Origin: a phage
DNA: 64,000 nucleotides
Sequence record: PZ386973.1
Reading direction: 5' to 3' (one strand)
In this document: piece by piece, positions 25,088 through 64,000 of the stretch
Position numbering within the stretch: position 1 is the first letter of the stretch
How the letters are laid out: every line of letters starts with the position of its first letter
The notes under the pieces: generated by a model
The model's input: only the letters and a program-made list of their open reading frames with translations
Databases searched by the model: none
Told to the model about the DNA's origin: nothing
Position numbers and translations under genes: made by a program

Positions 25088-25162
25088 GGTTCTCAAGCTC
25101 ATATGGTATGAGCACCCGGCTCATAACCGGAAGGTACGTAGGTTCGAATCCTCGGGGAGCCA
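25088..25162 (+). tRNA. tRNA with CAT anticodon (Met or Ile2)
   Basis: Acceptor GGTTCTC/GGGAGCC with G-U pairs, D-stem GCTC/GAGC, loop CTCATAA; T-stem pairing weak. Confidence 0.55.
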
Positions 25163-25569: not shown

Positions 25570-25671
25570 TACCTGTGAAACTAAAAGATTATTATATTGG
25601 TTGGTTTGTGGGACTAGTAGTAGGATTTTCACTAGGCTATAATATGTATCAACTAATAAACTGATTACATG

Positions 25672-25745
25672 GGGGGTGTAATCGAATTGGCATAGGTACT
25701 GGACTTAAAATTCAGGTTTTGTGGGTTCGAATCCCACCACCCCTA
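25672..25745 (+). tRNA. tRNA, anticodon read as TAA (Leu-type) on a class I body
   Basis: Acceptor GGGGGTG/CACCCCT, T-arm GTGGG-TTCGAAT-CCCAC, loop CTTAAAA, A73, short variable loop. Confidence 0.55.
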
Positions 25746-25763
25746 CCAAATTAAGGAATTAAG

Positions 25764-25931
25764 ATGTATAGACCTCCTCCGCCACCAACACGTCGTTCTA
25801 GGGAAGTCATCCTTATGGAATTGACGAAAAACTTCAAGGCGACTCTTGAGGATAGAGACTTAGGCACAGATGAAGACGTTGATTTCATTTGTAAACTATT
25901 AAAAATGAAACTGGAGAAACAACATGGCTAA
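25764..25931 (+). CDS. hypothetical small protein
   Basis: ATG after AAGGA; 55 codons. Confidence 0.4.
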   Translation: MYRPPPPPTRRSREVILMELTKNFKATLEDRDLGTDEDVDFICKLLKMKLEKQHG

Positions 25932-26130
25932 TCCTGAAATTACCATGCAACGACTCATGACTAAAGGCATGATAGCCGAGGCAGGTATTGAACAAGAAGT
26001 AAAAGGCTATTACGAACAGATTAAGACTATTATAGACTCTGCTAAAAACACCGGAGAAAAAGAACACGGTGCAGCAATTATGGCTATAACTCTTATTAGT
26101 CTAGACTTGGCCGAAGAATCTGGAGTTTAG
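25924..26130 (+). CDS. hypothetical protein
   Basis: Track ORF. Confidence 0.45.
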   Translation: MANPEITMQRLMTKGMIAEAGIEQEVKGYYEQIKTIIDSAKNTGEKEHGAAIMAITLISLDLAEESGV

Positions 26131-26160
26131 CTCCTCCAAACAGAATTTTTAAAAATGTAC

Positions 26161-26190
26161 TTGCTTTTTGTCTTAAATTTCTGATATAAT
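26161..26190 (+). promoter_or_regulatory. early promoter module
   Basis: TTGCTT-N18-TATAAT. Confidence 0.5.
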
Positions 26191-26220
26191 AGTCATATAA
26201 ATTGATGAAGGAGTTAACTA

Positions 26221-26496
26221 ATGCAAAATCGTGTTGTAGCAACTGGTATTGAAAGTGCAATCTGTAAATCCTGGGAAGGCTGGGAAGGTGAGATTGAATG
26301 GCTTTATTTCTACGATGTAGAACTCCTGCCGGAAGTTAAAGCTAAATGCGTTGAAGCTGGTATGGCTCCAGATGCAAAAGCTGATATTGATATTTCAATG
26401 TCTGAACTTAAAGGTCGTGTAGTTACCGTTAGTAATGAGGGGGAAGAAGTTTTTGAACTTCCGTTCTCCTTAGCTGTCACTCCTAAGTTCGACTAA
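26221..26496 (+). CDS. hypothetical protein
   Basis: Track ORF. Confidence 0.45.
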   Translation: MQNRVVATGIESAICKSWEGWEGEIEWLYFYDVELLPEVKAKCVEAGMAPDAKADIDISMSELKGRVVTVSNEGEEVFELPFSLAVTPKFD

Positions 26497-26532
26497 CTAA
26501 TACAGCACTGAGCAAGTTCTTCAAAATCTGAC

Positions 26533-26561
26533 TTGCTCAGTGCCCTAAAACTTGATATAAT
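26533..26561 (+). promoter_or_regulatory. early promoter module
   Basis: TTGCTC-N17-TATAAT inside a hairpin-forming region. Confidence 0.5.
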
Positions 26562-26624
26562 AGTTATCTAATTTGGAAACATATTTAAAAGTGTTTAAAC
26601 AAGTATTTGAATGCTTCTAAATAT

Positions 26625-26709
26625 GGGCGTTTATTCCGTAAGTGGTAGCGGAGGGGATTGTAAATCCCTGGTCATTGCGACTCGAGTGGTTCGACTCCAT
26701 TAACGCCCA
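26625..26709 (+). tRNA. tRNA-Tyr (anticodon GTA)
   Basis: Acceptor GGGCGTT/AACGCCC, loop TTGTAAA, long variable arm, encoded CCA. Confidence 0.75.
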
Positions 26710-26720
26710 CCAAATTTAAT

Positions 26721-26792
26721 GCACCTATCGTCTAATGGCTAGGACATCAGGATTTCAATCTGAGAATCGGAGTTCAATTCTCCGTGGGTGTA
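26721..26792 (+). tRNA. tRNA-Glu (anticodon TTC)
   Basis: Full cloverleaf traced (72 nt); loop ATTTCAA; T-arm CGGAG-TTCAATT-CTCCG. Confidence 0.7.
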
Positions 26793-26802
26793 CCAATTTC
26801 TG

Positions 26803-26877
26803 CATTCCTAGAGTGTTACTGGACAGCATGTCGGTCTCCAAAACCGTACGGTCTAGGTTCGAGTCCTAGTGGGTTTG
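26803..26877 (+). tRNA. tRNA-like element (possible Trp, CCA anticodon)
   Basis: T-arm CTAGG-TTCGAGT-CCTAG and loop CTCCAAA present; acceptor pairing not confirmed. Confidence 0.35.
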
Positions 26878-26886
26878 CCAAAATTT

Positions 26887-26958
26887 GCACCTTTAGCTGA
26901 GATGGATTAGCGCTTGCCTGAAGAGCTTGAGAGGTTCGTTCGATTCGAACAGGGTGCA
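26887..26958 (+). tRNA. tRNA-Phe (anticodon GAA)
   Basis: Acceptor GCACCTT/AGGGTGC, D-stem GCTG/TAGC, loop CTGAAGA; two anticodon-stem mismatches. Confidence 0.55.
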
Positions 26959-26978
26959 CCAATTTGAAGGAGATGCTG

Positions 26979-27251
26979 ATGCATCCTGAAAACTTCTTTA
27001 TTTACTGCGCGGATAAGTCGCTGAAACGTAGAATTAACAAAGTCTATCATTATCGTGCTAGTCAACAGCCTTATATATACGCTTTTGACGGTGATCACAT
27101 TCCACTAGAACAATTATCCTGTGATTACATGATATTGAAGAACTTTGACGAGACAAAGATCTCAAGCGTTCATAATCGACAGAATCCATTAACGTGGAAA
27201 TATAAGAAGAAAAAGAAAGGCATCAAATTCTTAAAAAATGTAGTTGCTTAG
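26979..27251 (+). CDS. hypothetical protein
   Basis: ATG with AAGGAG 6 nt upstream. Confidence 0.4.
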   Translation: MHPENFFIYCADKSLKRRINKVYHYRASQQPYIYAFDGDHIPLEQLSCDYMILKNFDETKISSVHNRQNPLTWKYKKKKKGIKFLKNVVA

Positions 27252-27272
27252 TTTCCAAAAGTTCTGTATAAT
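27244..27272 (+). promoter_or_regulatory. early promoter module
   Basis: TTGCTT-N17-TATAAT. Confidence 0.55.
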
Positions 27273-27320
27273 AATTACATAAATTGAACTGGAGAAGCAA
27301 CATGACAGAACAAGATAAAT

Positions 27321-27393
27321 CGACCGTTGGCTGAATGGCTTAGGCGAAGGATTGCAAATCCTTTTTATGTGAGTTCAAATCTCATGCGGTCGT
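27321..27393 (+). tRNA. tRNA-Cys (anticodon GCA)
   Basis: Acceptor CGACCGT/GCGGTCG, anticodon stem AAGGA/TCCTT, loop TTGCAAA. Confidence 0.7.
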
Positions 27394-27548
27394 CCAATTT
27401 GCTGAAAGAATTGTTAAATCAATTCAGGCACGCGTAGGAACACTGTCTCCGTAATTGAAAGATGAGACACGGTTTGGAGAGGTATGCCGCTACACGCTAC
27501 GGTGCTAACTCCGTCTAGGTGAAAATCCTAGTCAGCAATATAAATTTA

Positions 27549-27628
27549 GGGTCGTTAGCCAAGCGGTTTGGCGGTGGACTGTTAATCCATGTCGAAAGAC
27601 AACGTAGGTTCGAATCCTACACGGCCCG
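27549..27628 (+). tRNA. tRNA with GTT anticodon and 13-nt variable arm
   Basis: Acceptor GGGTCGT/ACGGCCC, D-stem GCCA/TGGC, anticodon stem GTGGA/TCCAT, loop CTGTTAA. Confidence 0.55.
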
Positions 27629-27733
27629 CCAAATTCTGTGTAGAGTTAAGTAAACCGGTAGCCAACCAGCTATCATTGCTGACATCGAATTCAGCCACAG
27701 ATACCATTTTCATTAATAACTGAGGAAACAAGC

Positions 27734-27919
27734 ATGTCCAAGAATGTAATTGCGCAGCTAGAAGTTCATCGTGATAGCACTATCAATAATATTGAAGTTG
27801 AGAAGAAATACATCGAAGAACTTAAACATGATATACTAGTAAGTCTCAACCGTCTTAATGTACGAAAAGAGTTTCTTAAAGAACTTAATGCAGCTATTGA
27901 AAAACTCAAAGCTGAGTAA
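27734..27919 (+). CDS. hypothetical small protein
   Basis: Track ORF. Confidence 0.4.
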   Translation: MSKNVIAQLEVHRDSTINNIEVEKKYIEELKHDILVSLNRLNVRKEFLKELNAAIEKLKAE

Positions 27920-27927
27920 ATAAATTA

Positions 27928-28001
27928 TGCGACCGGGGCTGGCTTGGTAATGGTACTCCCCTGTCACGGGAGAGAATGTGGGTTCAAATCCCATCGGTCG
28001 C
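27928..28001 (+). tRNA. tRNA-Asp (anticodon GTC)
   Basis: Acceptor GCGACCG/CGGTCGC, anticodon stem CTCCC/GGGAG, loop CTGTCAC. Confidence 0.75.
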
Positions 28002-28022
28002 GCCAAATAAGGTAGGTTAGCT

Positions 28023-28181
28023 ATGGAACGTAGGGAGTTTACTCCAGAAGAGATAGAGCAGATAAAAGAATCTGCTATGAAAAATGCTAGAATATCTCTG
28101 TCACTGGAAGGTATCATTATTAGTGACGTAAACTTTGAAAAAATCAAAGCCATAGCTGATGAACTGGAAAAAGTAATTTAA
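28023..28181 (+). CDS. hypothetical small protein
   Basis: ATG 28023; 52 codons. Confidence 0.4.
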   Translation: MERREFTPEEIEQIKESAMKNARISLSLEGIIISDVNFEKIKAIADELEKVI

Positions 28182-28182
28182 T

Positions 28183-28255
28183 ACATCCATAGCTCAATGG
28201 TTAGAGCTACCGCCTCTTAAGCGGAGGGTTCTAGGTTCAAGTCCTAGTGGGTGTA
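28183..28255 (+). tRNA. tRNA-Lys (anticodon CTT)
   Basis: Acceptor ACATCCA/TGGGTGT, D-stem GCTC/GAGC, loop CTCTTAA. Confidence 0.65.
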
Positions 28256-28284
28256 CCAAATTAAACTAGCACGAGAAATATGCT

Positions 28285-28632
28285 ATGATTAATGCTAAAG
28301 AAGAGTTGTTACTTGCCCTAAAGAATACTAAGTCTGAAGTTAAGTGTATTAAGATAGAATTCGGTTATTATGGGGATAAAGAAGTTTGGGTATTACCCGT
28401 AGGTTATACAGAAAAAGATATTGAAGATTTTCTAGATAATCTAGACTTTAAATATGATTCTGGTTTCGGCGGACAACTGCTTTATGGTAACGTATGGTTT
28501 ACTGATGGAACTTGGTTAGAACGTGGTGAATATGATGGTTCTGAATGGTGGGAATATAAGACTACACCAGCAATCCCAGAAGAATGCCGAACAATTAATG
28601 GTGAAGTAGATCGTACTTTACTATTAAATTAA
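28285..28632 (+). CDS. hypothetical protein
   Basis: Track ORF. Confidence 0.45.
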   Translation: MINAKEELLLALKNTKSEVKCIKIEFGYYGDKEVWVLPVGYTEKDIEDFLDNLDFKYDSGFGGQLLYGNVWFTDGTWLERGEYDGSEWWEYKTTPAIPEECRTINGEVDRTLLLN

Positions 28633-28640
28633 CAAAATTT

Positions 28641-28741
28641 CAGTGCAGAACACGGAGCTAGCAATTCGGAAGTGCTGACTCATGATAAGCTGCCTATGTA
28701 CTTGCGAAGCGGTCGTGTCCAAGACTCGGACTCTTGCACTG
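28641..28741 (+). ncRNA. candidate structured RNA closed by a long-range stem
   Basis: 5' CAGTGCA (28641-28647) pairs with 3' TGCACTG (28735-28741); no ORF. Confidence 0.3.
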
Positions 28742-28754
28742 AAAACAATCAAAC

Positions 28755-28875
28755 ATTCTAGCGTGGTTGATGGGGAAACCAGCTTGGCTAGGGCAGAAGC
28801 TCGTTCGATTCGAGTGGAAGAATGGTTCTCGTAAGTCCGCACAAGTGATAACAGGTTCGAGTCCTGTCTAGAATG
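28755..28875 (+). tRNA. tRNA-like element with two tandem T-arm hairpins
   Basis: ATTCTAG...CTAGAAT outer pairing; GCTCG-TTCGATT-CGAGT and ACAGG-TTCGAGT-CCTGT; too long for a canonical tRNA. Confidence 0.3.
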
Positions 28876-28884
28876 ACACTATAA

Positions 28885-29010
28885 AGTTTACTTATTGAGT
28901 AGGTTCCGATAGATCGGCGGGTCTATTCTGGCATTTAAGAGAGGTCTCGCAAACTTCTTTGTCAGCCGTGGGGTTCATAGCCTCCAGGTGGCCTACACAA
29001 TAAGTAAATT
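28885..29010 (+). ncRNA. candidate structured RNA closed by a 12-13 bp long-range stem
   Basis: AGTTTACTTATTG (28885-28897) pairs with CAATAAGTAAATT (28998-29010). Confidence 0.3.
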
Positions 29011-29024
29011 TATTAAAAATTCAT

Positions 29025-29053
29025 TTGCTATTCTGCTTAATTATCTGTATAAT
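29025..29053 (+). promoter_or_regulatory. early promoter module
   Basis: AAAAATTCATTTGCTA...TATAAT. Confidence 0.55.
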
Positions 29054-29085
29054 ATATTTTATAAAGTGAAGAGAAGGAAAGCAAA

Positions 29086-29244
29086 ATGAAACACAAGATA
29101 GCTCAAGTTTTTATGGCATTATGGTGTATGCCAATAGCTATAACAGCATTTAATCTAGATACTCTTACTATAGAAGAAAAATGTATCGGATTAGTTAGCG
29201 GCTTTAGTATGCTGGGCTTATCTTTGCTGTGGTTAAAGAAATAA
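29086..29244 (+). CDS. small hydrophobic membrane protein
   Basis: ATG after AGGAAAG; 52 codons with two hydrophobic segments; the overlapping minus-strand track ORF was rejected. Confidence 0.45.
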   Translation: MKHKIAQVFMALWCMPIAITAFNLDTLTIEEKCIGLVSGFSMLGLSLLWLKK

Positions 29245-29248
29245 TATT

Positions 29249-29323
29249 CTCCGTGTAGCTCAGTTTGGCCAGAGCGTTTCGTTTGGGGCGATAGGGTCGG
29301 GGGTTCAAATCCTCCCACGGAGA
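29249..29323 (+). tRNA. tRNA-Pro (anticodon TGG)
   Basis: Acceptor CTCCGTG/CACGGAG, D-arm GCTC...GAGC, loop TTTGGGG. Confidence 0.65.
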
Positions 29324-29333
29324 CCAAACAATT

Positions 29334-29407
29334 GCGGGTTAGATCTCTGGTAGAGATCGCTAGTCTCATAAGCTAGAAAGAGGTAGGTTCGATTCCTGCA
29401 CCCGCTT
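29334..29407 (+). tRNA. tRNA with CAT anticodon (Met, fMet or Ile2)
   Basis: T-arm GTAGG-TTCGATT-CCTGC, loop CTCATAA; acceptor end pairing ambiguous at position 1. Confidence 0.5.
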
Positions 29408-29430
29408 CCATTTTAATAGAGGATTTCGAA

Positions 29431-29598
29431 ATGAAAGTATTTCGATTAGTAGTAAGTGATAAACGTTTAGGTAAGAATACATCAAAATCCTTACTCGCTC
29501 ATTACGGTAAAAATTGGGATGAAGTAATGGTAGAGTTTAGTACTAATCACCCTTACCTGAAAGTTCACTCTATTAAAGAAGTATACAATGGTTACTAA
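29431..29598 (+). CDS. hypothetical small protein
   Basis: ATG 29431; 55 codons. Confidence 0.4.
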   Translation: MKVFRLVVSDKRLGKNTSKSLLAHYGKNWDEVMVEFSTNHPYLKVHSIKEVYNGY

Positions 29599-29599
29599 T

Positions 29600-29675
29600 A
29601 GATCGCTAGCTCAATAGGTTTAGTAGCATCCGACTTTTAATCGGAAGGTTCTGGGTTCAAGTCCCAGGCGATCTA
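29600..29675 (+). tRNA. tRNA-Lys (anticodon TTT)
   Basis: Acceptor AGATCGC/GCGATCT, anticodon stem TCCGA/TCGGA, loop CTTTTAA. Confidence 0.75.
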
Positions 29676-29696
29676 CCAATTTCAAGAAAAACGCAG

Positions 29697-29725
29697 TTGC
29701 TTGATGCTTAATTTCTTGTTATAAT
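29697..29725 (+). promoter_or_regulatory. early promoter module
   Basis: TTGCTT-N17-TATAAT followed by a GATGAGGATTTCTCCTCATC hairpin. Confidence 0.55.
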
Positions 29726-29963
29726 ATTTATATAAATTGATGAGGATTTCTCCTCATCATAGTTCACTAAGGTATTAGCTCGACCTAGGACTGGCTGCCA
29801 AAAAGCACGATCCCTACGATTCGGGAGAAGTTCTAGATTAGTCCACTAGATTCAGCGGCAACTGAATAGTGTATCGGGTTTGCGAGATGACGTAGTTCCT
29901 TCCGCTCGAAGCGAAGGTGCTGTAGTTACGCCGAGCTAATAGCCTTAGTAAATTAAAGAATTT

Positions 29964-30039
29964 GGGGGATGGGTCTGCTAGGAGTGGACACCTCGCTTGC
30001 ACCGAGGACATCAGAACGATTCGAATTCGTTATCCTCCA
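29964..30039 (+). tRNA. tRNA-Ala (anticodon TGC)
   Basis: Acceptor GGGGGAT/ATCCTCC, anticodon stem CCTCG/CGAGG, loop CTTGCAC. Confidence 0.65.
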
Positions 30040-30047
30040 CCAAATAC

Positions 30048-30121
30048 GCGTGATTGATGGAATGGGCATACATACCGTCCTTAGAAGTCGGGTTTTGAGG
30101 GTTCGAATCCCTTGTCACGCA
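30048..30121 (+). tRNA. tRNA, anticodon read as TAG (Leu-type) on a class I body
   Basis: Acceptor GCGTGAT/GTCACGC, T-arm GAGGG-TTCGAAT-CCCTT, loop CTTAGAA, A73; D-arm pairing unclear. Confidence 0.5.
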
Positions 30122-30236
30122 CCAAATTTGATGGTCAGAGTAAATTAAACCTACTATCTCGGTTGAGCTGTTTTAATGGGTTCGAATCCCAGCGAGGCGT
30201 AACTGCCTGGCGTGATAGAGGCATCATCTTATTATT

Positions 30237-30324
30237 GGAAGAGCAAATCGAATTGGCGACGAAAACCGCTTGGAAAGTGGCTGACTGGTAAAACGGCTTG
30301 AGAGTTCAAATCTCTTCTCTTCCG
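30237..30324 (+). tRNA. tRNA-Ser (anticodon GGA)
   Basis: Acceptor GGAAGAG/CTCTTCC, loop TTGGAAA, long variable arm. Confidence 0.6.
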
Positions 30325-30339
30325 CCAAACAATTTATAT

Positions 30340-30431
30340 GGTAGGTCAATCCAAAGGCTGGCGCTGGACTCCGACTTGAAATCGGTTGATCGTAGTGATA
30401 CGGTGTAAGGGTTCGATCCCCTTACCTACCT
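30340..30431 (+). tRNA. tRNA-Ser (anticodon TGA)
   Basis: Acceptor GGTAGGT/ACCTACC, anticodon stem CCGA/TCGG, loop CTTGAAA, long variable arm. Confidence 0.65.
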
Positions 30432-30439
30432 CCAAATCT

Positions 30440-30570
30440 TGGAATATGCCGGAATTAGTAGACGGGACTGCCGAATAGGTTTACTAGGAACATCCACTCC
30501 TAGAAATATACCTTAAAGGCGGTTGAGATAAATGGTCTATCTCGTGAAGGTTCAAGTCCTTCTATTCCTT
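30440..30570 (+). tRNA. tRNA-like element (Leu-type D-arm, over-length)
   Basis: GCCGGAATTAGTAGACGGG resembles a Leu D-arm; T-arm GAAGG-TTCAAGT-CCTTC; 131 nt, no clean cloverleaf. Confidence 0.3.
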
Positions 30571-30684
30571 GATACATCAATGGCTCAAAGTGTAACGGTG
30601 CTATTTGATGCTCTTGGAAAGACTTTCCCGACAGGCGTTCGGGGGTAAGCTTCTGAGGCTAGAATAGAAGAGTTTCTGAGAGCC

Positions 30685-30804
30685 GCCACAATTGAAAATT
30701 CGTACTCGTCTTGAGCTGCGTGCAATAGGAGATAACTTGATTAGTATTCTAGAACATGCTAATTGAGGATGGTTTCGCTAACCCTGCGAGTTTTCAATTG
30801 TGGC
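30685..30804 (+). ncRNA. candidate structured RNA closed by a perfect 14-bp long-range stem
   Basis: GCCACAATTGAAAA (30685-30698) is the exact reverse complement of TTTTCAATTGTGGC (30791-30804). Confidence 0.35.
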
Positions 30805-30873
30805 TATATCATAATTGGTTAATGATCCTGATTGTGAATCAGGCCTATGTGGATTCGAATTCCACTAGCCACC
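30800..30873 (+). tRNA. tRNA-His (anticodon GTG)
   Basis: Acceptor GTGGCTA/TAGCCAC, anticodon stem CCTGA/TCAGG, loop TTGTGAA, C73. Confidence 0.7.
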
Positions 30874-30901
30874 CCAAATTAACTTAAATAGGAAATAAAA
30901 T

Positions 30902-31099
30902 ATGGCTGATTTCTGCAAACAATGCTCTATTGATATGTGGGGCAGAGATACTGGTGATCTTTCTGGTTTGATTACAGAAGCCGAAGTTAAAGAAGGTTAT
31001 GGTGCAGTTGTGATTTGCGAAGGATGCGGAGTTATTCGAGTGGATCATGAAGGCAAACGTTTAGAAGAGCAGGAAAATTTAGGAGAAACAAATGAGTAA
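30902..31099 (+). CDS. small Cys-rich protein
   Basis: CKQC...CEGCG. Confidence 0.45.
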   Translation: MADFCKQCSIDMWGRDTGDLSGLITEAEVKEGYGAVVICEGCGVIRVDHEGKRLEEQENLGETNE

Positions 31100-31328
31100 T
31101 GCCTTAATTAGTGAAATTATGTTAACACGTCTTGCAGAATTACAAACTCTTCGAGATGAATCTCAGAATAACTTAGCCTACCATAAACAGATGGTAGATA
31201 CTCTTACTACTCGTATTGAAACTTACGAGCGCGATATTGCAGCATTACAAGCCCTTTTCTCTGTGTCAGCACCCGATACGTTAGAACAGCCTCCTGTGTC
31301 TCAGCCGGTAGAAACAGCATCTAGTTAA
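31092..31328 (+). CDS. hypothetical protein
   Basis: Track ORF. Confidence 0.45.
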   Translation: MSNALISEIMLTRLAELQTLRDESQNNLAYHKQMVDTLTTRIETYERDIAALQALFSVSAPDTLEQPPVSQPVETASS

Positions 31329-31337
31329 TAGCATTCT

Positions 31338-31410
31338 TGGAGTGTAGATCAATTGGCAGATCGTCGGCCTCTGACTCCGAAGGTTCCTGGTTCGATCCCA
31401 GGCACTCCAG
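31338..31410 (+). tRNA. tRNA-Gln (anticodon CTG, tentative)
   Basis: Acceptor TGGAGTG/CACTCCA, T-arm CCTGG-TTCGATC-CCAGG, loop CTCTGAC. Confidence 0.6.
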
Positions 31411-31419
31411 CCAAACAAT

Positions 31420-31492
31420 TGGAGAGTAGTGTAACGGTTAGCACAACGGCCTTTGACTCCGTTAATGGTAGGTTCGATTCCTCCTTCTCCAG
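31420..31492 (+). tRNA. tRNA-Gln (anticodon TTG)
   Basis: Acceptor TGGAGAG/TTCTCCA, D-stem GTGT/GCAC, loop CTTTGAC. Confidence 0.6.
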
Positions 31493-31503
31493 CCAAATAA
31501 TAG

Positions 31504-31576
31504 GCGGTTAAGCACACGGGTTGTGTCGCAGGCCTTCCAAGCCTCGCTGAGTAGGGTTCGATTCCCTCTAGCCGCT
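31504..31576 (+). tRNA. tRNA-Gly (anticodon TCC)
   Basis: Acceptor GCGGTTA/TAGCCGC, loop CTTCCAA. Confidence 0.6.
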
Positions 31577-31595
31577 CCAACTTTAAGGAAACGTT

Positions 31596-31847
31596 ATGCA
31601 CGTTTTTGAGTTTCGTAATAAAAGTACCGATAAACGAGTTATTGTTATTGGAGAAACATACCGAGCATACGAACAAACTGACGGCTCTGTTATCCTGAAT
31701 GATGAGAAAGGAGGTTTTAGCTTTTATCCAGAAGAACCTTATGAAGAGTTTCGAAAACAATTTAACCTAGACTGGAGAAAGCATTTAAACACTGTTGCTT
31801 CATCTGTAGTATTGCCAACTACCAGTACTGTACCCCCTAATGGCTGA
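31596..31847 (+). CDS. hypothetical protein
   Basis: Track ORF; the minus-strand track ORF 31281-31760 across the tRNAs was rejected. Confidence 0.45.
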   Translation: MHVFEFRNKSTDKRVIVIGETYRAYEQTDGSVILNDEKGGFSFYPEEPYEEFRKQFNLDWRKHLNTVASSVVLPTTSTVPPNG

Positions 31848-32004
31848 CAACCTAAAAGTAAAGATCGATAAACAAAAGAAACGTGTAGAAGTAGAGATTG
31901 GTGAAGAACGTGTAGCCTTCACCTTTGAATTTCTTCAGCAGTTGGCAATGACAGTTATGACTGATAAGTCTCCTGTTATTGAAAAAGAAATCCCGTTGAA
32001 ATAA
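31840..32004 (+). CDS. hypothetical small protein
   Basis: ATG 31840 overlapping the upstream stop; 54 codons. Confidence 0.4.
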   Translation: MADNLKVKIDKQKKRVEVEIGEERVAFTFEFLQQLAMTVMTDKSPVIEKEIPLK

Positions 32005-32012
32005 CGGGTTTT

Positions 32013-32084
32013 GCTCCTAAAGCATTGCTGGCGATGCAGTTGCCTTGTAAGCATCTGAACCGGGTTCGATTCCTGGTGGGAGCA
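32013..32084 (+). tRNA. tRNA-Thr (anticodon TGT)
   Basis: Acceptor GCTCCTA/TGGGAGC, D-stem GCAT/ATGC, loop CTTGTAA. Confidence 0.65.
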
Positions 32085-32102
32085 CCAAATTTAAAAATTC
32101 AT

Positions 32103-32131
32103 TTGCCTTCTCTCTTATTTATTGTTATAAT
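32103..32131 (+). promoter_or_regulatory. early promoter module
   Basis: TTGCCT-N17-TATAAT. Confidence 0.55.
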
Positions 32132-32161
32132 ATTTATATAAATTAATGAGAGGGAAACCAA

Positions 32162-32455
32162 ATGAAACGTTATCTTTCTGTATTATTCCAAGCTGGTGGT
32201 CAACGCTATACTTACGAATTTCCTAGCTCTTGGAAAATAAAAGAAGGTGATCAAGTAGTAGTGTTAACACCACGTGAAGGGTATAAAGTAGTAACGGTTA
32301 AACAAGTATTTCCAAAAGATCATGAACCGGCTAAAGGCATTCGCTATAAGATGATTCATGGTGTGGTTCGTCAAGTACCACGAGCGGAAGTAGAAATCAG
32401 AGTAGATAAAGATGGTAAACTTAAGTATACTTCTTGCTTAGATGAGTTACTATAA
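32162..32455 (+). CDS. hypothetical protein
   Basis: Track ORF. Confidence 0.45.
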   Translation: MKRYLSVLFQAGGQRYTYEFPSSWKIKEGDQVVVLTPREGYKVVTVKQVFPKDHEPAKGIRYKMIHGVVRQVPRAEVEIRVDKDGKLKYTSCLDELL

Positions 32456-32661
32456 TGAGGATTACTTTCACAGAAAAGATCATGAGTAATGGTGTTATGA
32501 TCATTACCGCATGGGATGGTAATCAGTGGTGTAGTGTTTCAGGTATTAAGCCCGAAGAACAAACACTAGAAAATATCTCAAAGATTAAGCGAAGAATGGC
32601 AGAACGTGCACGACTTCCAGGTGCGCCTAGAAATGGTAAACGTTCTGCAATTAAATGTTAA
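32455..32661 (+). CDS. hypothetical protein
   Basis: Track ORF, ATGA overlap. Confidence 0.4.
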   Translation: MRITFTEKIMSNGVMIITAWDGNQWCSVSGIKPEEQTLENISKIKRRMAERARLPGAPRNGKRSAIKC

Positions 32662-32662
32662 T

Positions 32663-32736
32663 GCTTCGGTAGCTTAGCGATCTAAAGCACTCGGCTGATA
32701 ACCGAGAGATCGGGGGTTTAAATCCCTCCCGGAGTA
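32663..32736 (+). tRNA. tRNA-Ile (anticodon GAT)
   Basis: Acceptor GCTTCGG/CCGGAGT, anticodon stem CTCGG/CCGAG, loop CTGATAA; unusual T-loop TTTAAAT. Confidence 0.6.
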
Positions 32737-32835
32737 CCAAATTTAGGAATTAAGACTATGCGTCCAGGAAAGTTTAAAAAAGCTAATTGGTCTAAAGAGT
32801 ATAAAGAATACTTACTTAGTCTAATAAAACATAAT

Positions 32836-32908
32836 AGTTAGTTGGCAGAGTGGTTATGCACCTCCTTCATACGGAGCGACTACAGTGGTTCAAATCCACT
32901 ACTAACTA
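32836..32908 (+). tRNA. tRNA with CAT anticodon (Met or Ile2)
   Basis: Acceptor AGTTAGT/ACTAACT, loop TTCATAC. Confidence 0.6.
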
Positions 32909-32934
32909 CCAAATTCTAACATCGGGGAGATCTA

Positions 32935-49880: not shown

Positions 49881-49917
49881 GAAGACATTTTTTGAAAACA
49901 CATTTCCAGAAATTACT

Positions 49918-50517
49918 GTCGGATTTGCACACTGCATTTCTAGAAATTTATGGTCGGATTTGCACAAACGCCTAAGTTTTTAGGAACATATAATCTCTTG
50001 AAAATAGCAGCATTATTTCGGGCCGAAGGCCCATGATTGCCTGAGTTTTTAGAGCCACAGAAATTTTCCCTTGTCAAGCTATTTTGCCACATTTAGCTAA
50101 TAAAATTTTACTTTTTCTGCACCTATCTCAAATCTTCTCCAATTATCTCAACTCTTCCCCAAAATCCCGGCAAATCTGGTGCTCCGCACCAACCATGCGC
50201 CCACATCCCTCTAGTCCCCAAAATTTCTTCGTTCTCTCAACTTCTCTCCAAACCTATACAATCACACACCCTCTAATCGAAGTCATAAAAATCTTGTCGG
50301 ATTCGCACATCTTAATCCTAGAAAAACCGTGTCGGATTTGCACATACCCCACAGGATTCGAACGCAGTTCGTGATTGCTGGAGTTTTTGGGAAAATTCAT
50401 TGTCGGATTCGCACACTATAAAAATTTTTAGGGTCGGATTTGCACACTACCAAAAATTGTCGGATTCGCACATACACGCCAGCACGTAACCCGTGGAGCA
50501 AATGTCGGATTTGCACA
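49918..50517. repeat. iteron array: 8 direct copies of GTCGGATT(T/C)GCACA
   Basis: Copies at 49918, 49963, 50296, 50331, 50402, 50433, 50459, 50504, all same orientation. Confidence 0.85.
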
Positions 50518-50522
50518 AAAGC

Positions 50523-50700
50523 GCAGGGCAATTGCCCTGCTAGTTTGAATGCGAATAAAAATGAGAATCATTATCATTTAAAAAGCGGAATGCGAATGAG
50601 AATCATTATCATTTACGAAAGGGAATGAGAACTATTCAGGAAGTGAAACGATTCTCATTTAGATAGTGAAATGCGAATGATAATGATTCGCATTTAAAAA
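50523..50700. repeat. 18-bp palindrome GCAGGGCAATTGCCCTGC plus direct and inverted copies of a GAATGCGAATGAGAATCATTATCATTTA unit
   Basis: Palindrome 50523-50540; repeat copies around 50547-50615 and inverted or palindromic copies 50646-50696. Confidence 0.75.
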
Positions 50701-50727
50701 CGGAAGTGAGAAACACTGTTATTTAAG

Positions 50728-50819
50728 TTATCCACAGACTTATCAACAGCACGATTTGACTTGACAAAATCCTAGCCATTTTGAGGCGTTATTAACAGAC
50801 TTATCCACAGCTTATCCTA
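50728..50819. promoter_or_regulatory. cluster of DnaA-box-like 9-mers (TTATCCACA and variants)
   Basis: TTATCCACA at 50728 and 50801; variants TTATCAACA, TTATTAACA, TTATCCTAC. Confidence 0.6.
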
Positions 50820-50835
50820 CTGTATAAATATACAG
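50796..50835. repeat. left arm of a 40-bp inverted repeat (partner 54682-54721)
   Basis: CAGACTTATCCACAGCTTATCCTACTGTATAAATATACAG; reverse complement matches the right arm at 39 of 40. Confidence 0.8.
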
Positions 50836-54681: not shown

Positions 54682-54721
54682 CTGTATATTTATACAGTAG
54701 GATAACCTGTGGATAAGTCTG
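54682..54721. repeat. right arm of the 40-bp inverted repeat (partner 50796-50835)
   Basis: CTGTATATTTATACAGTAGGATAACCTGTGGATAAGTCTG. Confidence 0.8.
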
Positions 54722-54789
54722 TGTAAAACTCCTTATATCGCCGCCTATCGTGTCAAATTATTTTGTGCTGTGGATAACGTTGTGGATAA
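54699..54789. promoter_or_regulatory. cluster of DnaA-box-like 9-mers (TGTGGATAA orientation)
   Basis: TGTGGATAA at 54708, 54769, 54781; TAGGATAAC at 54699. Confidence 0.6.
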
Positions 54790-55150
54790 CTTAAATGATA
54801 GTGGTTCTCACTTAGGCCGATAGTTTCTTATAGTTATTATTTCTATCGGTTACGATTTCTTATAATTATTATTTCTCACTAATTTATATGTATATTATAT
54901 ATTATAGAATAGTTAGTTGGCTAATGAGATTTTCCGTGATTAATAGTCTGCTAATAGTTTAAGCCGTTACAATCCACCAGCATGATTATCATCCTAGCAA
55001 TTATTAGTCTGCTATCTTTCCGATGCATACTAACAAATAAAAGTCAATTAATTTAGTTCATAAAATAAGTAGTTATCCACTGGAAAATAAAAGTCAAGTG
55101 GATAACTAGGAAAATTTCATTTTTGCTTTTGGGGATAAGTTATCAACAAG
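54790..55150. promoter_or_regulatory. AT-rich region with an inverted DnaA-box pair (origin-like)
   Basis: Long A/T-rich tracts; TTATCCACT at 55073 and AGTGGATAA at 55097; no ORF. Confidence 0.4.
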
Positions 55151-56846: not shown

Positions 56847-57044
56847 ATGATTTTCTTTCCTACTGAGTCATTAATTTTAGGCTTGTTTATTATGGCGGCC
56901 TCGTTATTACTCGCTTATTTTCAAAATGATTTAGATTCATATTATTTTAAACGTAAATCTAAGTTAGCAAAGCGTTTAGGTCTGATTTGTTTTATTGCCG
57001 CCGTTGCTTGTGGTGTTAGTTCTAGCCTTATGCCTTTAAATTAA
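56847..57044 (+). CDS. small membrane protein
   Basis: Track ORF with hydrophobic helices. Confidence 0.3.
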   Translation: MIFFPTESLILGLFIMAASLLLAYFQNDLDSYYFKRKSKLAKRLGLICFIAAVACGVSSSLMPLN

Positions 57045-57118
57045 TGTTGCAAATTATAACGCCTATTATTCAAGGCGTTATATTTGGCAATATTGCCGTT
57101 ATTAACTTAATCCCTTTA

Positions 57119-58798
57119 ATGGAGTTTATTACTATGATTATTTCCGCAGAAAAACAAACCGTTATCCTGAAAATGGCCGCTGACTTTAATTTCTATGGTA
57201 AACGTCTGCGCGCCACTAAACTGGAGGTCTGCGACGATATATCAAAAGCGGTCTACGATACAACAAAACACTCGACCGCTATCTGCGACTGGCTGGAAGC
57301 AAATAAACCAGTTAAACCGAAAGCGGCGAAAGTAGCAAAAGCCATTAAAAACGATGAGCGTCCAGAAGCGGCGGGGATTGTTTCTAGCACGGTTGAACAG
57401 TGGGAAGTAAAACAAGGCAAACGCTTTATTATTACGTCGATTCAGAATAATACTTTCCCGCATAAAAACTTTTTAGCCTCATTGGAAAAATTCGCTGAAT
57501 ATATCGGTGCTGATTTGCTTGTTTCTAAGTATATTTATAATAAAAACGGCTTCCAAAATGGCGAGGGTGCGGATGGAATCAAATATGATTCCGCGTTCGA
57601 TAAATATATTTGCAGCAAAAACGTGTTTTTAAATAACCGCCGTTTTGCTTTCATGGCTGAAATTAATGTTTTGCCAACAGCAGACTATCCGCTTTCTGGA
57701 TTCGCTGAAACTGCAACGGCGCTTAATCTGGAAGGTCTGGCAATCGGTCATGCTAAAATCACCGCTGAAAGCGTGCCAGCTCTCAAAGGTGAAGTAGTAC
57801 GCCGCATGTATTCAACCGGAACGGCAACGCTCAAAAACTACATTCAGCAGAAAGCAGGGCAAAAAGCGGAAGCGCTTCATAACTTTGGTGCGCTGATTGT
57901 CGAGTTCGACGAGGACGGGGAGTTTTTTGTTCGCCAGCTTGAAACTATGGATGAAAGCGGGGTGTTTTATGATCTGAATGTTTGCGCTACTCCCGCCGGA
58001 TGCTATGAAACAACGGGGCATGTTTTAGGCTTGCAATATGGTGACATACACGCCGAAAAATTGGATGATGATTGTGCCGTTGCGTCATGGGCTGGCGAAA
58101 ATAGCTTGCTTGATATTCTTAAACCAAAATATCAGTTTGTGCATGATGTGCATGATTTTACATCGCGCAACCATCACAACCGCGCTTCGGGTGTATTCCT
58201 AGCAAAACAATATGCCGCCGGACGTGATAAAGTTCTGGATGATCTTATCGATACGGGGCGCGTGCTGGAATCGATGGAACGAGATTTTAGCCAAACAATC
58301 ATTGTTGAATCTAATCACGATCTGGCGCTATCCCGCTGGCTTGATGATCGTAATGCTAACATTAAAGACGATCCAGCAAACGCGGAACTATATCACCGCC
58401 TGAATGCCGAGATTTATGGAGCTATTGCAGAAAAAGACGATACTTTCAACGTGCTAGATTATGCATTGCGCAAGGTTGCAGGTTGTGAGTTTAACGCCAT
58501 TTTCCTAACAACTGACCAATCATTTAAAATTGCAGGCATCGAGTGTGGCGTACACGGTCACAACGGCATTAACGGCAGCCGTGGCAATCCTAAACAATTT
58601 AAGAAATTGGGCAAATTGAACACCGGACACACTCACACCGCCAGCATTTACGGCGGGGTATATACCGCTGGCGTTGCTGGTAGTCTCGATATGGGTTACA
58701 ACGTTGGCGCGTCAAGCTGGACGCAAACGCATTTAATTACCTATGCAAACGGGCAGCGCACTTTGATCGATTTTAAGAATGGTAAATTCTTTGCGTAA
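57119..58798 (+). CDS. A1: A1-like pre-early protein with metallophosphoesterase domain
   Basis: GDIHA, GHNG and GHTHT metallophosphatase motifs; about 555 aa from the internal ATG; matches T5 A1 as recalled. Confidence 0.6.
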   Translation: MEFITMIISAEKQTVILKMAADFNFYGKRLRATKLEVCDDISKAVYDTTKHSTAICDWLEANKPVKPKAAKVAKAIKNDERPEAAGIVSSTVEQWEVKQGKRFIITSIQNNTFPHKNFLASLEKFAEYIGADLLVSKYIYNKNGFQNGEGADGIKYDSAFDKYICSKNVFLNNRRFAFMAEINVLPTADYPLSGFAETATALNLEGLAIGHAKITAESVPALKGEVVRRMYSTGTATLKNYIQQKAGQKAEALHNFGALIVEFDEDGEFFVRQLETMDESGVFYDLNVCATPAGCYETTGHVLGLQYGDIHAEKLDDDCAVASWAGENSLLDILKPKYQFVHDVHDFTSRNHHNRASGVFLAKQYAAGRDKVLDDLIDTGRVLESMERDFSQTIIVESNHDLALSRWLDDRNANIKDDPANAELYHRLNAEIYGAIAEKDDTFNVLDYALRKVAGCEFNAIFLTTDQSFKIAGIECGVHGHNGINGSRGNPKQFKKLGKLNTGHTHTASIYGGVYTAGVAGSLDMGYNVGASSWTQTHLITYANGQRTLIDFKNGKFFA

Positions 58799-59627: not shown

Positions 59628-60362
59628 ATGAATCAAGTTAAAACGAATATTACCCGTAATTTCCCGCATATTTCCCGCGTTATGATTTGGGATCTGGACG
59701 GCACTATCATTAATTCTTTCCATCGTGTAGCGCCTTGTTTTGATAGCGAGGGCAATTTAGATTTAAATAAGTATAAAAATGAAGCCTGCAAACATCATTT
59801 AATAATGCAGGATTCATTATTGCCATTAGTTGAATATATGCGCCAGTGCATGAATGACGCTAACACGCTAAACATTATTTGCACCGCTCGACTAATGAGC
59901 AAATCAGATTATTATTTCTTGCGTAAACAAGGATTGCGAGGGCGTGGAAATAGTAATATCCGCGTGTTTTCCCGCGATACCCTGCACAAATACTTTAAAG
60001 CTGATAAGGTTAGCGAAATATACCACAGCAAGGACGCAGTATATAAAAGCCATTATTTTGAATTATTTAAACAATTATATCCGAACGCTGATTTTACAAT
60101 GATTGATGATCATAAAGGCGTGTTAGCGGCGGCGGCATCATACGGATTTAAAACGCTAGACGCGCAAGCCGTTAATGATATTCTATCAATCGGTGTTACA
60201 TTGATTGGTGAAACCTTTATTGATGAATCGCTCGACGATGATAATGATTATCAGTTCCTGGCCGACCGCCTGCAATTATGTTGGGAAGGTATGACCGAGG
60301 AAGAACGCGCAGAATATAGTTGCAGCCCGCAACAATATATTGAGAAATTAAAAGTTGCGTAA
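59628..60362 (+). CDS. dmp: HAD-family 5'-deoxyribonucleotidase-like protein
   Basis: MIWDLDGTIINS (DxDGT motif I); 244 aa; matches T5 dmp as recalled. Confidence 0.6.
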   Translation: MNQVKTNITRNFPHISRVMIWDLDGTIINSFHRVAPCFDSEGNLDLNKYKNEACKHHLIMQDSLLPLVEYMRQCMNDANTLNIICTARLMSKSDYYFLRKQGLRGRGNSNIRVFSRDTLHKYFKADKVSEIYHSKDAVYKSHYFELFKQLYPNADFTMIDDHKGVLAAAASYGFKTLDAQAVNDILSIGVTLIGETFIDESLDDDNDYQFLADRLQLCWEGMTEEERAEYSCSPQQYIEKLKVA

Positions 60363-60380
60363 TAATTAAAGTTGAAATAG

Positions 60381-60417
60381 TTTCATCCTGCAATTAAAAT
60401 GGTTGCAGGATGAAACA
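60381..60417. terminator. bidirectional terminator hairpin
   Basis: GTTTCATCCTGCAA...TTGCAGGATGAAAC 14-bp stem between convergent genes. Confidence 0.55.
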
Positions 60418-60527
60418 ATTACCCTGCTAATAGTAACGGGGTGTGGCGGTTAGCAGACTAAGTATTTTCCCCCAACCCACTGGACACACCTCCATGTGTA
60501 ATCTTATGAAATTTGGCAAAAGGTTAA

Positions 60528-60773
60528 TTAGCGCATAGAAGGGTCATCAAACCGATGTTCGGGTCTAAACTCACGAAATCTCTTCCGCGACGCCCGAGAA
60601 CCGTCCGCCCACTCCCGTTCAAACTCCGCACGTTTTTCATCAAACCTCTGCTCCCTTTCCGCAATCTCCCGCGATACTTCCGCAATATATTTGCGATGCT
60701 TGTTAATGGCCGCAGTCATTCCGAAAACTCCCGCGATTATTCCGATAATAAAAGCAATTACAATACTAAACAT
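60528..60773 (-). CDS. small membrane protein
   Basis: Track ORF with N-terminal TM helix. Confidence 0.4.
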   Translation of the reverse strand: MFSIVIAFIIGIIAGVFGMTAAINKHRKYIAEVSREIAEREQRFDEKRAEFEREWADGSRASRKRFREFRPEHRFDDPSMR

Positions 60774-60960
60774 CTAGTTCTCTCTCAATTTGCAGAATAC
60801 GAGTGCTATCACAACGTTGCAGTTTTACTGATTTTTCTATAGCTAATTGTTGTTGTTTTACTCTGGCTTCTAGAGTTTTTAGGCGAACATACTCGGTATA
60901 AGAAACAAGGAAAATTGCCCGGACTAATATTACTATTAGTGTAGCTGCCAATTCCATCAT
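60766..60960 (-). CDS. small membrane protein
   Basis: Track ORF; followed by two more sub-threshold TM mini-ORFs around 60960-61207. Confidence 0.4.
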   Translation of the reverse strand: MMELAATLIVILVRAIFLVSYTEYVRLKTLEARVKQQQLAIEKSVKLQRCDSTRILQIERELDV

Positions 60961-61368
60961 TTACGTTTCTCCGTTAATAACGTTTCAATTCTAGCCAGGT
61001 GGTTATCTAAAATACATTGCCCAATAATCACAATCCCTAGTAGTGCAATAATTACCCATTCCATTAAATCCACCCCGCCATAGCTGCTAACCAAAAACCT
61101 ACGAAAATAAAGAATAGGATAGTCCCAAGTCCAAAACTATTAATCCAGCTATCATACACCTCTCCGCGTCTGCTCTTTCTTTTGTTTGACATATCTTTCA
61201 TGCTCCTATAAGTGTGGTATTTAAAATAGTCTATAATTTGTACACAACCAACCGTGCTTATAGACTCCTAGAAGGACTTCTACTTTTCCTACCTAGTGGT
61301 TTCTGCCAGTACACCATCCAAGAAATAAAAAATTTAGTTTACTTGGATGTCTTTTTGTTTTATACTAA

Positions 61369-61635
61369 TTACAAGTAATTAGATTGTTCTAGTTTAAATT
61401 TACAGTCACCATATTTAAGGTCAAACTGACTGAGATCCCACCACCCAAACTTAGTACGGAGCTGTACTACTGGAAAGCGATCTCCCTTAATACGAACTTT
61501 TTGAACCTTGAGGCCGTAATGTTCTTCTCCCGCACCCCCAAAAGATTTTACAAATCCCGTACAAAATGGTTTAGGAGCAGGTGCACAACCAGATAACATA
61601 ACTGCGGCAACTAGTGCAATCACAAACTTTTTCAT
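61369..61635 (-). CDS. llp: small lipoprotein, Llp-like (candidate receptor-blocking protein)
   Basis: Lipobox MKKFVIALVAAVMLSGC; divergent from and adjacent to the receptor-binding-like gene. Confidence 0.55.
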   Translation of the reverse strand: MKKFVIALVAAVMLSGCAPAPKPFCTGFVKSFGGAGEEHYGLKVQKVRIKGDRFPVVQLRTKFGWWDLSQFDLKYGDCKFKLEQSNYL

Positions 61636-61720
61636 ATTTATCTCTCCATTTCTAATTTATGAATCTATTATAGCAAAATAGAGAGATAAAAGCAAATACA
61701 TTTTTATAATAGGAGATTAT

Positions 61721-63508
61721 ATGGGTTTTTTCGCTGGAAAATATAGTGATGGTAAAACTGTATTATCACTAAACAAAGTGAATGGTGGGGATATTAATGC
61801 CCACAAAACTCCTAATGCCAATACTATATTTCACTCTGATATGCCATTTGTTCTAGTTGAGAGTACTTATGAAAGTGCACTTTCTAATGCTGGAAATGGC
61901 TTTTTTGTATGTCAGATGCCTTCTGTGATAGCTAACCTAAAAAGTAATGATCCTGGTAGGGTTATACTAACCGCTGTTGAGATAAATGGTACACATAGAG
62001 CTTTTCTTAACGGTACTCAATCCCAGGTTGGGCAATTTCTTGCATTTTTTGAAGATCCCCCTATTGGTAGGGCTGGTGCTGAACTAGGCCTTACGTCAGC
62101 TTTTGCATCTGGTAATAGTTTGGCACATGGTACTTACACTTATAACTCCAGTCTAGGCCATGAAGAGTCAATAGCTAGACAAGGTACTGGTGGTACTATA
62201 TCACAGGCTTCTGGATTTAACTTATACAGACCTGGAGGGGCATATGCCGGTGAAGCTATCGGTAGAGCATGGACTTTAGCAGGATTTCCAGCTGGAGCAT
62301 CTAAAGTATCGATAAATAGTGGTAATGTTGACTTCTGGCACCCTAATTGGCAAGCTCCTATAGGGGCTGGGAAAAGGGGTCATAATTGGTTTTATGTTTG
62401 TAATTCCAATATACGTGGGTATGCAGGTAAAAAAGGTACTACGCCAAGTAATGTTAGTGTCCTATATAATTCTTCAACCTATCCAAATAAGGTTTATGTA
62501 TGCAGAGGCTCGACATCTAACTTAGCATCACAAGCAGCAAAGAAGATGTATGTGCAGGATAGTTATAATGTTACTCCTACCAAAGTTATTTGGTATGTGC
62601 TGAATCTTAGATACTCTAATGGTAGTATGAGCGTTGCTAGTAATCCCTTTACTGGATCCGATATTCTTATAAGCCCCTCTAATTTTACTATAAAAGGTGT
62701 TAGTCTTCCAAATACTAGTTACAAATTCATTAATCAGAATGCTTTTGGTAACTTATCGTCTAGACCTGATATGGAGTACATTGGTAATAACGTTGCTTAT
62801 ACCGGAGTCTTTGGAGACACTACAGCAAGATGCGAGATTGTAGGTTCTAACAAAGGCTCTTTATGGTCTCCGGTAAATTATGGGGGCTCTAAATCTCAGA
62901 TAAGTATTTACAAATTTTCTGCTGGTAAACAATGGTATGTTAATTCCAATAATAATACTATAGGTAATGAGCATGGGGTTGTTTGGGGACCTTCTTCAGT
63001 ACCTTTACGATTACTGCCAAATAACGTAGCTAGTACTTACATAGGTGATGATATAAACCCCTCTTATCCAGGTACAGGAAATAAGTACGTAGGGCTATCT
63101 ACCGTAGGCCTTGGATTACCTAATGCAAACTCTACAGTAATCCTAACTACTGAGGTAGTTGCCGGAAATCTTAATACAGCAGGAGGTCCTATACGAACAT
63201 ATGGTGGCACTGCGTGGCAGGTGCAAGGTAGAAGACAACAAAGTTATACAGGTGGTGATGGGGTATTCCATCAAATATTAACTTTACCACCTAATCAGTT
63301 GGTGCCCTTCCATACTACAGCTTCTTATAGCTATACACAGCAGTGGGCTAGTCGACCTGATGATTTAACATTTACTAGAAGTGGATTTATTTATACTATT
63401 AAAAATTTGGGTAACGGTAACGCTGAGTTAGGTGTAGTTATACATGCAAATGAATCCGCCGCAGTTTTCTTACCGAGATTACGAGTAACAGTTCAACGCC
63501 TTACCTAA
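61721..63508 (+). CDS. receptor-binding tail protein-like (pb5/oad-like)
   Basis: 595 aa, Gly/Asn/Ser/Thr-rich; position next to the lipoprotein gene. Confidence 0.5.
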
Positions 63509-63528
63509 AGGAGGAAATATGGCAAATG

Positions 63529-64000
63529 ATGTATTAGTACCAGATCTTATGTCCCCTGAAGGGATGGATGTGATTGAAGCTTATTTACAGTGTGGCAGTG
63601 ATGTGCCTTCTGCCGCACGTAGCCTTGGAATGTCCGAAATTGCTTTCCGAGATATTATGAATCGTAGTGAAGTTAAGAACTACTTAAACGATATTTTTAT
63701 GGAGAGTGGATTCCGTAATAGGGATCGTTTGTTCGGTGTTCTAGATGAAGTTATTAAACGTAAACTAGAGGAGCTAGAAGAAACTGGCATGGGTTCTGAC
63801 CAGGATATTATGGATATTCTATGGAAGGCACACAAAATGAAGATGGAAGAAATGAAAATGATGGTAGAGTTAGAAAAAGCTAAAGCTGCTGTCCGTGCTC
63901 CTGCTAATCAGACCAATATCCAGAATAACATTATTGCTGGAGCTGGGGATCAAAACTACATGGACTTAATTACTTCCCTAGCTACTGGAGGTAAGAAGTA
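63529..64000 (+). CDS. hypothetical DNA-binding-like protein (possibly terminase small subunit; 3' end beyond window)
   Basis: ATG after AGGAGG; helical protein; no stop before the window edge. Confidence 0.4.

Follow-up and report, generated by a model that had tools for sequence, protein, structure and literature searches.

A BF23-type hrs/llp gene pair in a T5-like phage genome, with BtuB as the expected receptor

The window analysed here, a 64,000-nt stretch of the phage sequence record PZ386973.1, carries a divergent gene pair that is almost certainly the BF23 allele of a host-recognition module, in which the receptor-binding tail protein (Hrs) would bind BtuB and a small lipoprotein (Llp) would block it. 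The module itself is already known and ordinary: its BF23 version was sequenced and functionally characterised in 2006, and annotations of T5-like phage genomes, hundreds of them, routinely include hrs/llp. The practical value of the present assignment is one of annotation. Mildly new is only that profile matches, conserved cysteines and, more tentatively, the fold suggest that Llp of the FhuA and BtuB types may share a common ancestry.

The gene pair and its genomic setting

The open reading frame listing of the window contained two ORFs exactly at the positions given by the first-pass annotation, which had described a lipobox lipoprotein transcribed away from a 595-aa Gly/Asn/Ser/Thr-rich protein. 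That description holds in each part: the lipoprotein gene (88 codons for amino acids) lies on the minus strand and the receptor-binding protein (RBP) gene on the plus strand, they are separated by 85 bp, and the four residues make up 38.5% of the RBP (G, 11.6%; S, 10.1%; N, 9.2%; T, 7.6%). The likeness to the T5 llp/oad arrangement, also put forward in the first reading, proved to be homology (pb5, E = 2e-49; gene order colinear with T5). The surroundings match those in T5 and BF23: terS lies downstream of the RBP gene and llp, divergent, 85 bp upstream; in BF23 (OR083247) terS follows oad after 10 nt. This is the position expected for the pb5 family, directly upstream of terS/terL, divergent to llp and near the right terminal repeat. 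The features are collected in Table 1.

Table 1. Features of the hrs/llp locus and neighbouring genes in the window
Feature	Position	Strand	Remarks
A1 DNA-transfer protein	57044-58798		Terminal-repeat gene
dmp phosphatase	59628-60362		Terminal-repeat gene
Small membrane-protein ORF	60528-60773	-	Downstream of llp, same strand
Small membrane-protein ORF	60766-60960	-	Downstream of llp, same strand
Small membrane-protein ORF	60957-61094	-	Downstream of llp, same strand
Small membrane-protein ORF	61064-61201	-	Downstream of llp, same strand
llp	61369-61635	-	Precursor of receptor-blocking (superinfection-exclusion) lipoprotein, 88 aa, BF23 type
Lipobox codons L14-S15-G16-C17	61585-61596	-	Pfam LPAM_1, residues 1-18
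Divergent intergenic region	61636-61720	.	85 bp; llp promoter and both ribosome-binding sites
llp Shine-Dalgarno GGAGAG	61642-61647	-	Sequence reading
llp -10 TATAAT	61667-61672	-	17-nt spacer to -35
llp -35 TTGCTT	61690-61695	-	Sequence reading and BF23 DQ097178 annotation
RBP Shine-Dalgarno AGGAG	61711-61715	+	Sequence reading
hrs/oad	61721-63508	+	Tail-tip RBP of the pb5 family (BF23/BtuB type), 595 aa
terS (terminase small subunit)	63520-64000	+	Start of the gene, truncated at the window end; colinear with BF23 OR083247 and T5 NC_005859

A megablast search with the 2140-bp region of the pair matched 186 phage records, all T5-like (Demerecviridae), from phages of Salmonella, Escherichia, Shigella and their relatives. 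The best match was Salmonella phage Kenya-K15 (96.5%), and both BF23 records, including the original hrs/llp submission DQ097178, matched over the full region at 91.6%. Homologous llp/RBP pairs in the same arrangement were found in well over 100 phage records, and by sequence similarity the window is assigned to a T5-like phage (Tequintavirus, Demerecviridae).

The module differs from that of BF23 by about 8% at the nucleotide level, and nearly all of these differences are synonymous. For llp there are nine synonymous and no non-synonymous differences, and for the RBP gene dN is 0.022 and dS 0.44 (dN/dS, about 0.05); both ORFs are therefore real genes under purifying selection and not chance ORFs. 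The intergenic region differs from that of BF23 at one of its 85 nucleotides, and the llp promoter lies where the DQ097178 record has its minus_35 and minus_10 signals of llp. A generic promoter/terminator scan of 61150-63700 gave fewer promoter-like sites than shuffled controls and missed the llp promoter, because its -35 hexamer has only three of six matches.

The four membrane-protein ORFs downstream of llp match phrog_6447, phrog_5851, phrog_6369 and phrog_8596 and are the counterparts of T5.159-T5.162 and of BF23 Orf1-4 in the annotations of those phages. Compared with the BF23 annotation, in which A1 begins at about 57134, the ORF of A1 is extended by 30 codons on its upstream side; a small PHROG of its own, phrog_33010, is matched by the first 28 residues, and a 22-nt hairpin (57043-57094) overlaps this N-terminal extension. 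Directly 3' of the stop codon of dmp, at 60376-60420, lies an 18-bp near-perfect hairpin that is probably the dmp terminator; the inferred proximal boundary of the terminal repeat (at about 60486) follows about 65 nt later. The terminal-repeat genes A1 and dmp are present in a single copy, with early genes and a tRNA cluster directly upstream and with llp, the RBP gene and terS downstream. Such a junction is absent from the linear virion genome of T5-type phages, so that the source record is probably a permuted assembly with a collapsed repeat; the Lindwurm and LmqsSP1 records stop where the window stops, at terS.

The tRNA cluster (20792-32911) lies on the plus strand throughout. ARAGORN called 22 genes, of which Tyr (26625-26712) and Ala (29964-30042) were without an Rfam listing, and Rfam gave two extra tRNA-like matches without an ARAGORN call (20792-20878, 42 bits; 25088-25162, 40 bits). 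Short direct repeats are dense at 49900-50835 and 54682-54813, with TGTCGGATT(T/C)GCACA in about eight copies and ATGAGAATCATTATCATTT in three. A 132-nt inverted repeat (50704-50835 against 54682-54813; 79% complementary) bears DnaA-box-like TTATCCACA motifs. Should the window be colinear with BF23, this repeat-dense zone is the far end of the terminal repeat of about 9.7 kb, and it is probably the counterpart of the first-step-transfer (injection stop) region of T5, which has been described as rich in repeats. Over 40000-64000 the closest relatives differ, the module being nearest to Kenya-K15 (96.5%) and the surrounding 24 kb to E. coli phage OSYSP (91.5%), which fits the modular exchange of hrs/llp cassettes reported for T5-like phages.

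The two proteins

The RBP is identical to BF23 Hrs (AAZ03642) at 573 of 595 residues (96%), and in the alignment its identity is 99% to the protein of Salmonella phage Kenya-K15, 84% to that of SPC35 and 72% to that of DT57C. The BLASTP comparison with pb5 that the first reading had proposed found a full-length homologue (T5 pb5/Oad; 31%, E = 4e-58; 35% in the multi-phage alignment), and the pb5 chains 8b14_B and 8a8c_B in PDB were matched at E = 2e-49, residues 1-595 against 1-640. The profile phrog_4815, 'receptor binding tail protein', was matched at E = 5e-268, and Pfam gave no family for this protein. The N-terminus is the part most like pb5 (50% identity, residues 1-50), and the part least like it (20%) is residues 101-150, which align with the FhuA-inserting loop L1 of pb5 (Gln115; pb5 loops described in PMC9586334). 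This pattern fits a common scaffold with a different receptor-contact surface.

The 22 amino acid differences from BF23 Hrs are spread over the protein, and four of them (G173R, G177A, E178K, and I180M; residues 173-180, nucleotides 62237-62260) make up a single cluster. The cluster comes just after F166, which aligns with Phe170 of T5 pb5, the tip of the FhuA-contacting loop L2. Because the proteins of Kenya-K15, NR01, and SPC35 have the version of the window at these residues, BF23 is the outlier there. That the cluster tunes the recognition of E. coli against Salmonella BtuB seems to us less likely than the retargeting of the lipoprotein scaffold considered below.

The 88-aa ORF of llp begins with MKKFVIALVAAVMLSGC; a basic n-region and a hydrophobic h-region precede the lipobox L14-S15-G16-C17, and Pfam LPAM_1 is matched above its cut-off of 20 (23.9 bits, E = 5e-5); apart from this lipid-attachment site, Pfam found no domain. 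The predicted mature protein has 72 aa with Cys17 as its lipidated first residue, so that the type II signal peptide with lipobox and the small mature protein agree with the features of the family (about 60-75 aa). Residue +2 of the mature protein is Ala; as the +2 rule governs lipoprotein sorting in E. coli, sorting to the outer membrane is expected. All 88 residues are identical to those of BF23 Llp (AAZ03643), and the protein is present in 76 phage records at an identity of at least 99% and in 105 at 95-99%.

Receptor, proposed mechanism and alternative readings

BF23 uses BtuB and T5 uses FhuA, pb5 can be replaced by BF23 Hrs, and BtuB is blocked after infection by BF23 Llp (Mondigler et al. 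2006, as cited in PMC4728585 and PMC10644984). Golomidova et al. cloned llp of DT57C, the product of which is one residue off BF23 Llp; with it, DT57C-type phages and BF23 plated more than 100-fold less well and T5 was unaffected, and resistant mutants had lesions in btuB (PMC4728585). T5-like phages that depend on BtuB have RBPs of a single clade, and the RBP clades track the receptor (PMC12980165). The RBP of the window is 72-96% identical to the aligned members of the BtuB clade (BF23, SPC35, and DT57C), and by this similarity it would belong to the BtuB-specific (BF23) subtype and not to the FhuA (T5) or FepA (H8) subtype. Since the hrs/llp allele is that of BF23, the two proteins are expected to form a matched BF23-type pair with BtuB, not FhuA, as the receptor.

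The claim that the lipoprotein blocks the receptor used by the tail protein thus gained support, from the complete identity with BF23 Llp and from the PHROG family shared with T5 Llp, with BtuB as the expected receptor. The further claim that the large protein determines the host range stood in part. The RBP fixes the terminal receptor; on hosts that produce O-antigen the range is decided largely by the L-shaped lateral tail fibres (PMC4728585), and on such strains the RBP does not set the host range alone. In the main text of the BASEL paper, consulted for the receptors of phages HildyBeyeler and SelmaRatti, these names were not found.

In the proposed mechanism, Hrs would sit at the tip of the straight tail fibre and bind BtuB, the outer-membrane TonB-dependent transporter of vitamin B12, irreversibly, which would commit the virion to DNA ejection. 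After export and lipidation at Cys17, Llp would be anchored in the outer membrane's periplasmic leaflet, where its binding would make BtuB unusable by Hrs; this would prevent superinfection and would spare progeny virions from inactivation on the debris of lysed cells. Lipidated T5 Llp is located in the periplasm and binds a non-native conformation of the FhuA plug, which makes EL7 and EL8, two extracellular loops, fold inwards across the site of pb5, and the same mechanism was proposed for other TonB-dependent transporters (PMC9586334). By analogy, it is a reasonable, though unproven, inference that Llp binds the plug of BtuB from the periplasm and by such 'reverse allostery' folds the extracellular loops over the RBP site. 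In the set of papers searched, no structure of BtuB with Llp or with Hrs was found. The sequence analysis establishes the identity of the genes, their family membership and arrangement, the purifying selection on them and the lipobox; the dependence on BtuB and the blocking by cloned llp come from the literature on identical or near-identical proteins.

With BtuB as the receptor, resistance to the phage of the window would be expected to arise through btuB mutations, and immunity of infected cells to other phages that depend on BtuB is predicted. To judge from the FhuA phenotypes that T5 Llp causes, such cells would probably also be defective in the BtuB-dependent uptake of vitamin B12 and E colicins.

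Among the other readings of the pair, a drift of the RBP to another or a narrowed receptor (a different TonB-dependent transporter, for example FepA, or BtuB of Salmonella only), which would leave Llp mismatched, might be suspected from the 22 substitutions against BF23 Hrs with their cluster at 173-180, from the Salmonella phages that are the closest relatives of the module (Kenya-K15, 99% at the amino acid level), from the hrs/llp recombination reported in DT57C (PMC4728585) and from the mismatched pair suggested for Cit2 (PMC12980165). We consider it very improbable, as far more divergent RBPs keep BtuB (DT57C, 72%; SPC35, 84%) and the dN/dS of 0.05 indicates conservation and not adaptive change. 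Moreover, the FepA-type RBPs, at about 28% identity to the T5-type RBP of Cit2, form a clade apart from the BtuB binders (PMC12980165).

Even less probable is a module working as in T5 itself, with the tail protein binding to FhuA, the transporter of ferrichrome, and with the same transporter blocked by the lipoprotein. The full-length homology to pb5 and the T5-identical gene arrangement are compatible with this, but the RBP is only 31-35% identical to T5 pb5 against 96% to the BtuB-specific BF23 Hrs, its lowest identity to pb5 (20%, residues 101-150) falls at loop L1 (Gln115), and Llp is identical to BF23 Llp, a type that gave no block of T5 (PMC4728585). This reading was rejected. Least probable of all, and likewise rejected, is that the small ORF encodes a generic phage lipoprotein or moron next to the RBP gene by coincidence. 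The missing Pfam domain beyond the lipid-attachment site and the lack of a significant match among PDB sequences would agree with it, but they are outweighed by the identity with the experimentally characterised BF23 Llp, by the adjacency, which T5, BF23, DT57C, SPC35 and Stitch share with over 100 further records, and by the purifying selection seen in the nine synonymous against zero non-synonymous changes.

Probable distant kinship with T5 Llp and Cor, and comparison with known systems

The comparison with Llp suggested in the first reading was clear for BF23 (100%), whereas BLASTP against T5 Llp was marginal (30% over 67 aa, much of which is the signal peptide), and on its own it would therefore have been nearly negative. 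A phmmer search of PDB sequences with Llp gave only chance-level matches (ovomucoid and a cellulase CBM), with T5 Llp not found among them. With profiles, Llp matched phrog_1119, 'Cor superinfection exclusion protein', at E = 1.8e-26 over positions 1-78 of 78, and T5 Llp matched the same profile over its full length at E = 1.1e-19; a tblastn search also linked Llp to a Cor protein from Drexlerviridae, that of phage grams (33.8% over 80 aa; E = 7e-4). The lipid-bearing cysteine, C25 and C78 of Llp align with cysteines of T5 Llp (C26 and C73 for the latter two), as does a KGD-F-V motif, and G16, C17, C25, and C78 are invariant in an alignment of 12 sequences. T5 Llp has an intramolecular disulphide between Cys11 and Cys58 of the mature protein. 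Llp carries the two further conserved cysteines of the Llp/Cor family at mature positions 9 and 62, and a disulphide may join them. AlphaFold modelled Llp at a pLDDT of 47 from the single sequence, which was unusable, and of 83 with the 12-sequence alignment. Foldseek found no significant match in PDB, and the second-best match in a BFVD fold search was the superinfection-exclusion protein of Escherichia phage CEC_Kaz_2018. The search for homologue clusters of Llp gave only 11, all at least 58% identical and none forming a bridge to T5 Llp or Cor, so that no deeper profile could be built from them.

In the literature the BF23-type Llp is termed 'non-homologous' to T5 Llp; on balance, distant homology with T5 Llp and Cor is the likelier case. 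We lean slightly towards the view that the BF23-type Llp is a diverged member of the Llp/Cor family that would jam the BtuB plug from the periplasm by a reverse allostery like that of T5 Llp, one ancestral scaffold having been retargeted between TonB-dependent transporters alongside its partner RBP. If the FhuA-blocking and BtuB-blocking Llp do share ancestry, the T5 Llp-FhuA structure would be a usable template for the shutting of BtuB.

The closest known system is the pair of BF23 itself, hrs (receptor-binding) and llp (receptor-blocking lipoprotein) (DQ097178 and OR083247; Mondigler, Ayoub & Heller 2006, J Basic Microbiol 46:116, as cited in the papers named above). The window has the same genes with the same lengths (88 and 595 aa), the same flanking genes and the same 85-bp intergenic region but for one nucleotide, with Llp at 100% and Hrs at 96%; it differs in the 22 substitutions in Hrs and in the remaining genome, which is not that of BF23 (best match over 24 kb, OSYSP, 91.5%). 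In the more distant oad (pb5)/llp pair of T5 (NC_005859; T5.157/T5.158) the architecture is the same, an RBP gene beside terS with a divergent lipoprotein gene, and so is the logic, in which a small lipoprotein inactivates the receptor of the phage's own RBP. The two RBPs are homologous end to end, and both Llp proteins belong to phrog_1119, with a common pattern of a lipid-bearing cysteine plus two cysteines. Of the T5 structures, 8a8c and 8b14 show FhuA-pb5, 8a60 shows FhuA-Llp and 7qjf shows Llp.

Among the BtuB-dependent T5-like phages DT57C, SPC35, phiR2-01, and Epseptimavirus (for example, Stitch), the arrangement is the same and the RBP is homologous at 72-84%, with Llp identities of about 50% for phiR2-01, 68% for Stitch and 99% for SPC35 and DT57C. 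Their alleles are more divergent; the divergence of the DT57C RBP is mosaic and concerns the N-terminal residues up to about 200 (PMC4728585). The Cor lipoproteins of T1-like phages, phi80 and N15 are likewise small outer-membrane proteins of phrog_1119, by which the phage makes its own TonB-dependent receptor inactive. The target of the Cor proteins is FhuA, and their genes lie downstream of a gpJ-type tail-tip locus and not beside a pb5-type RBP gene.
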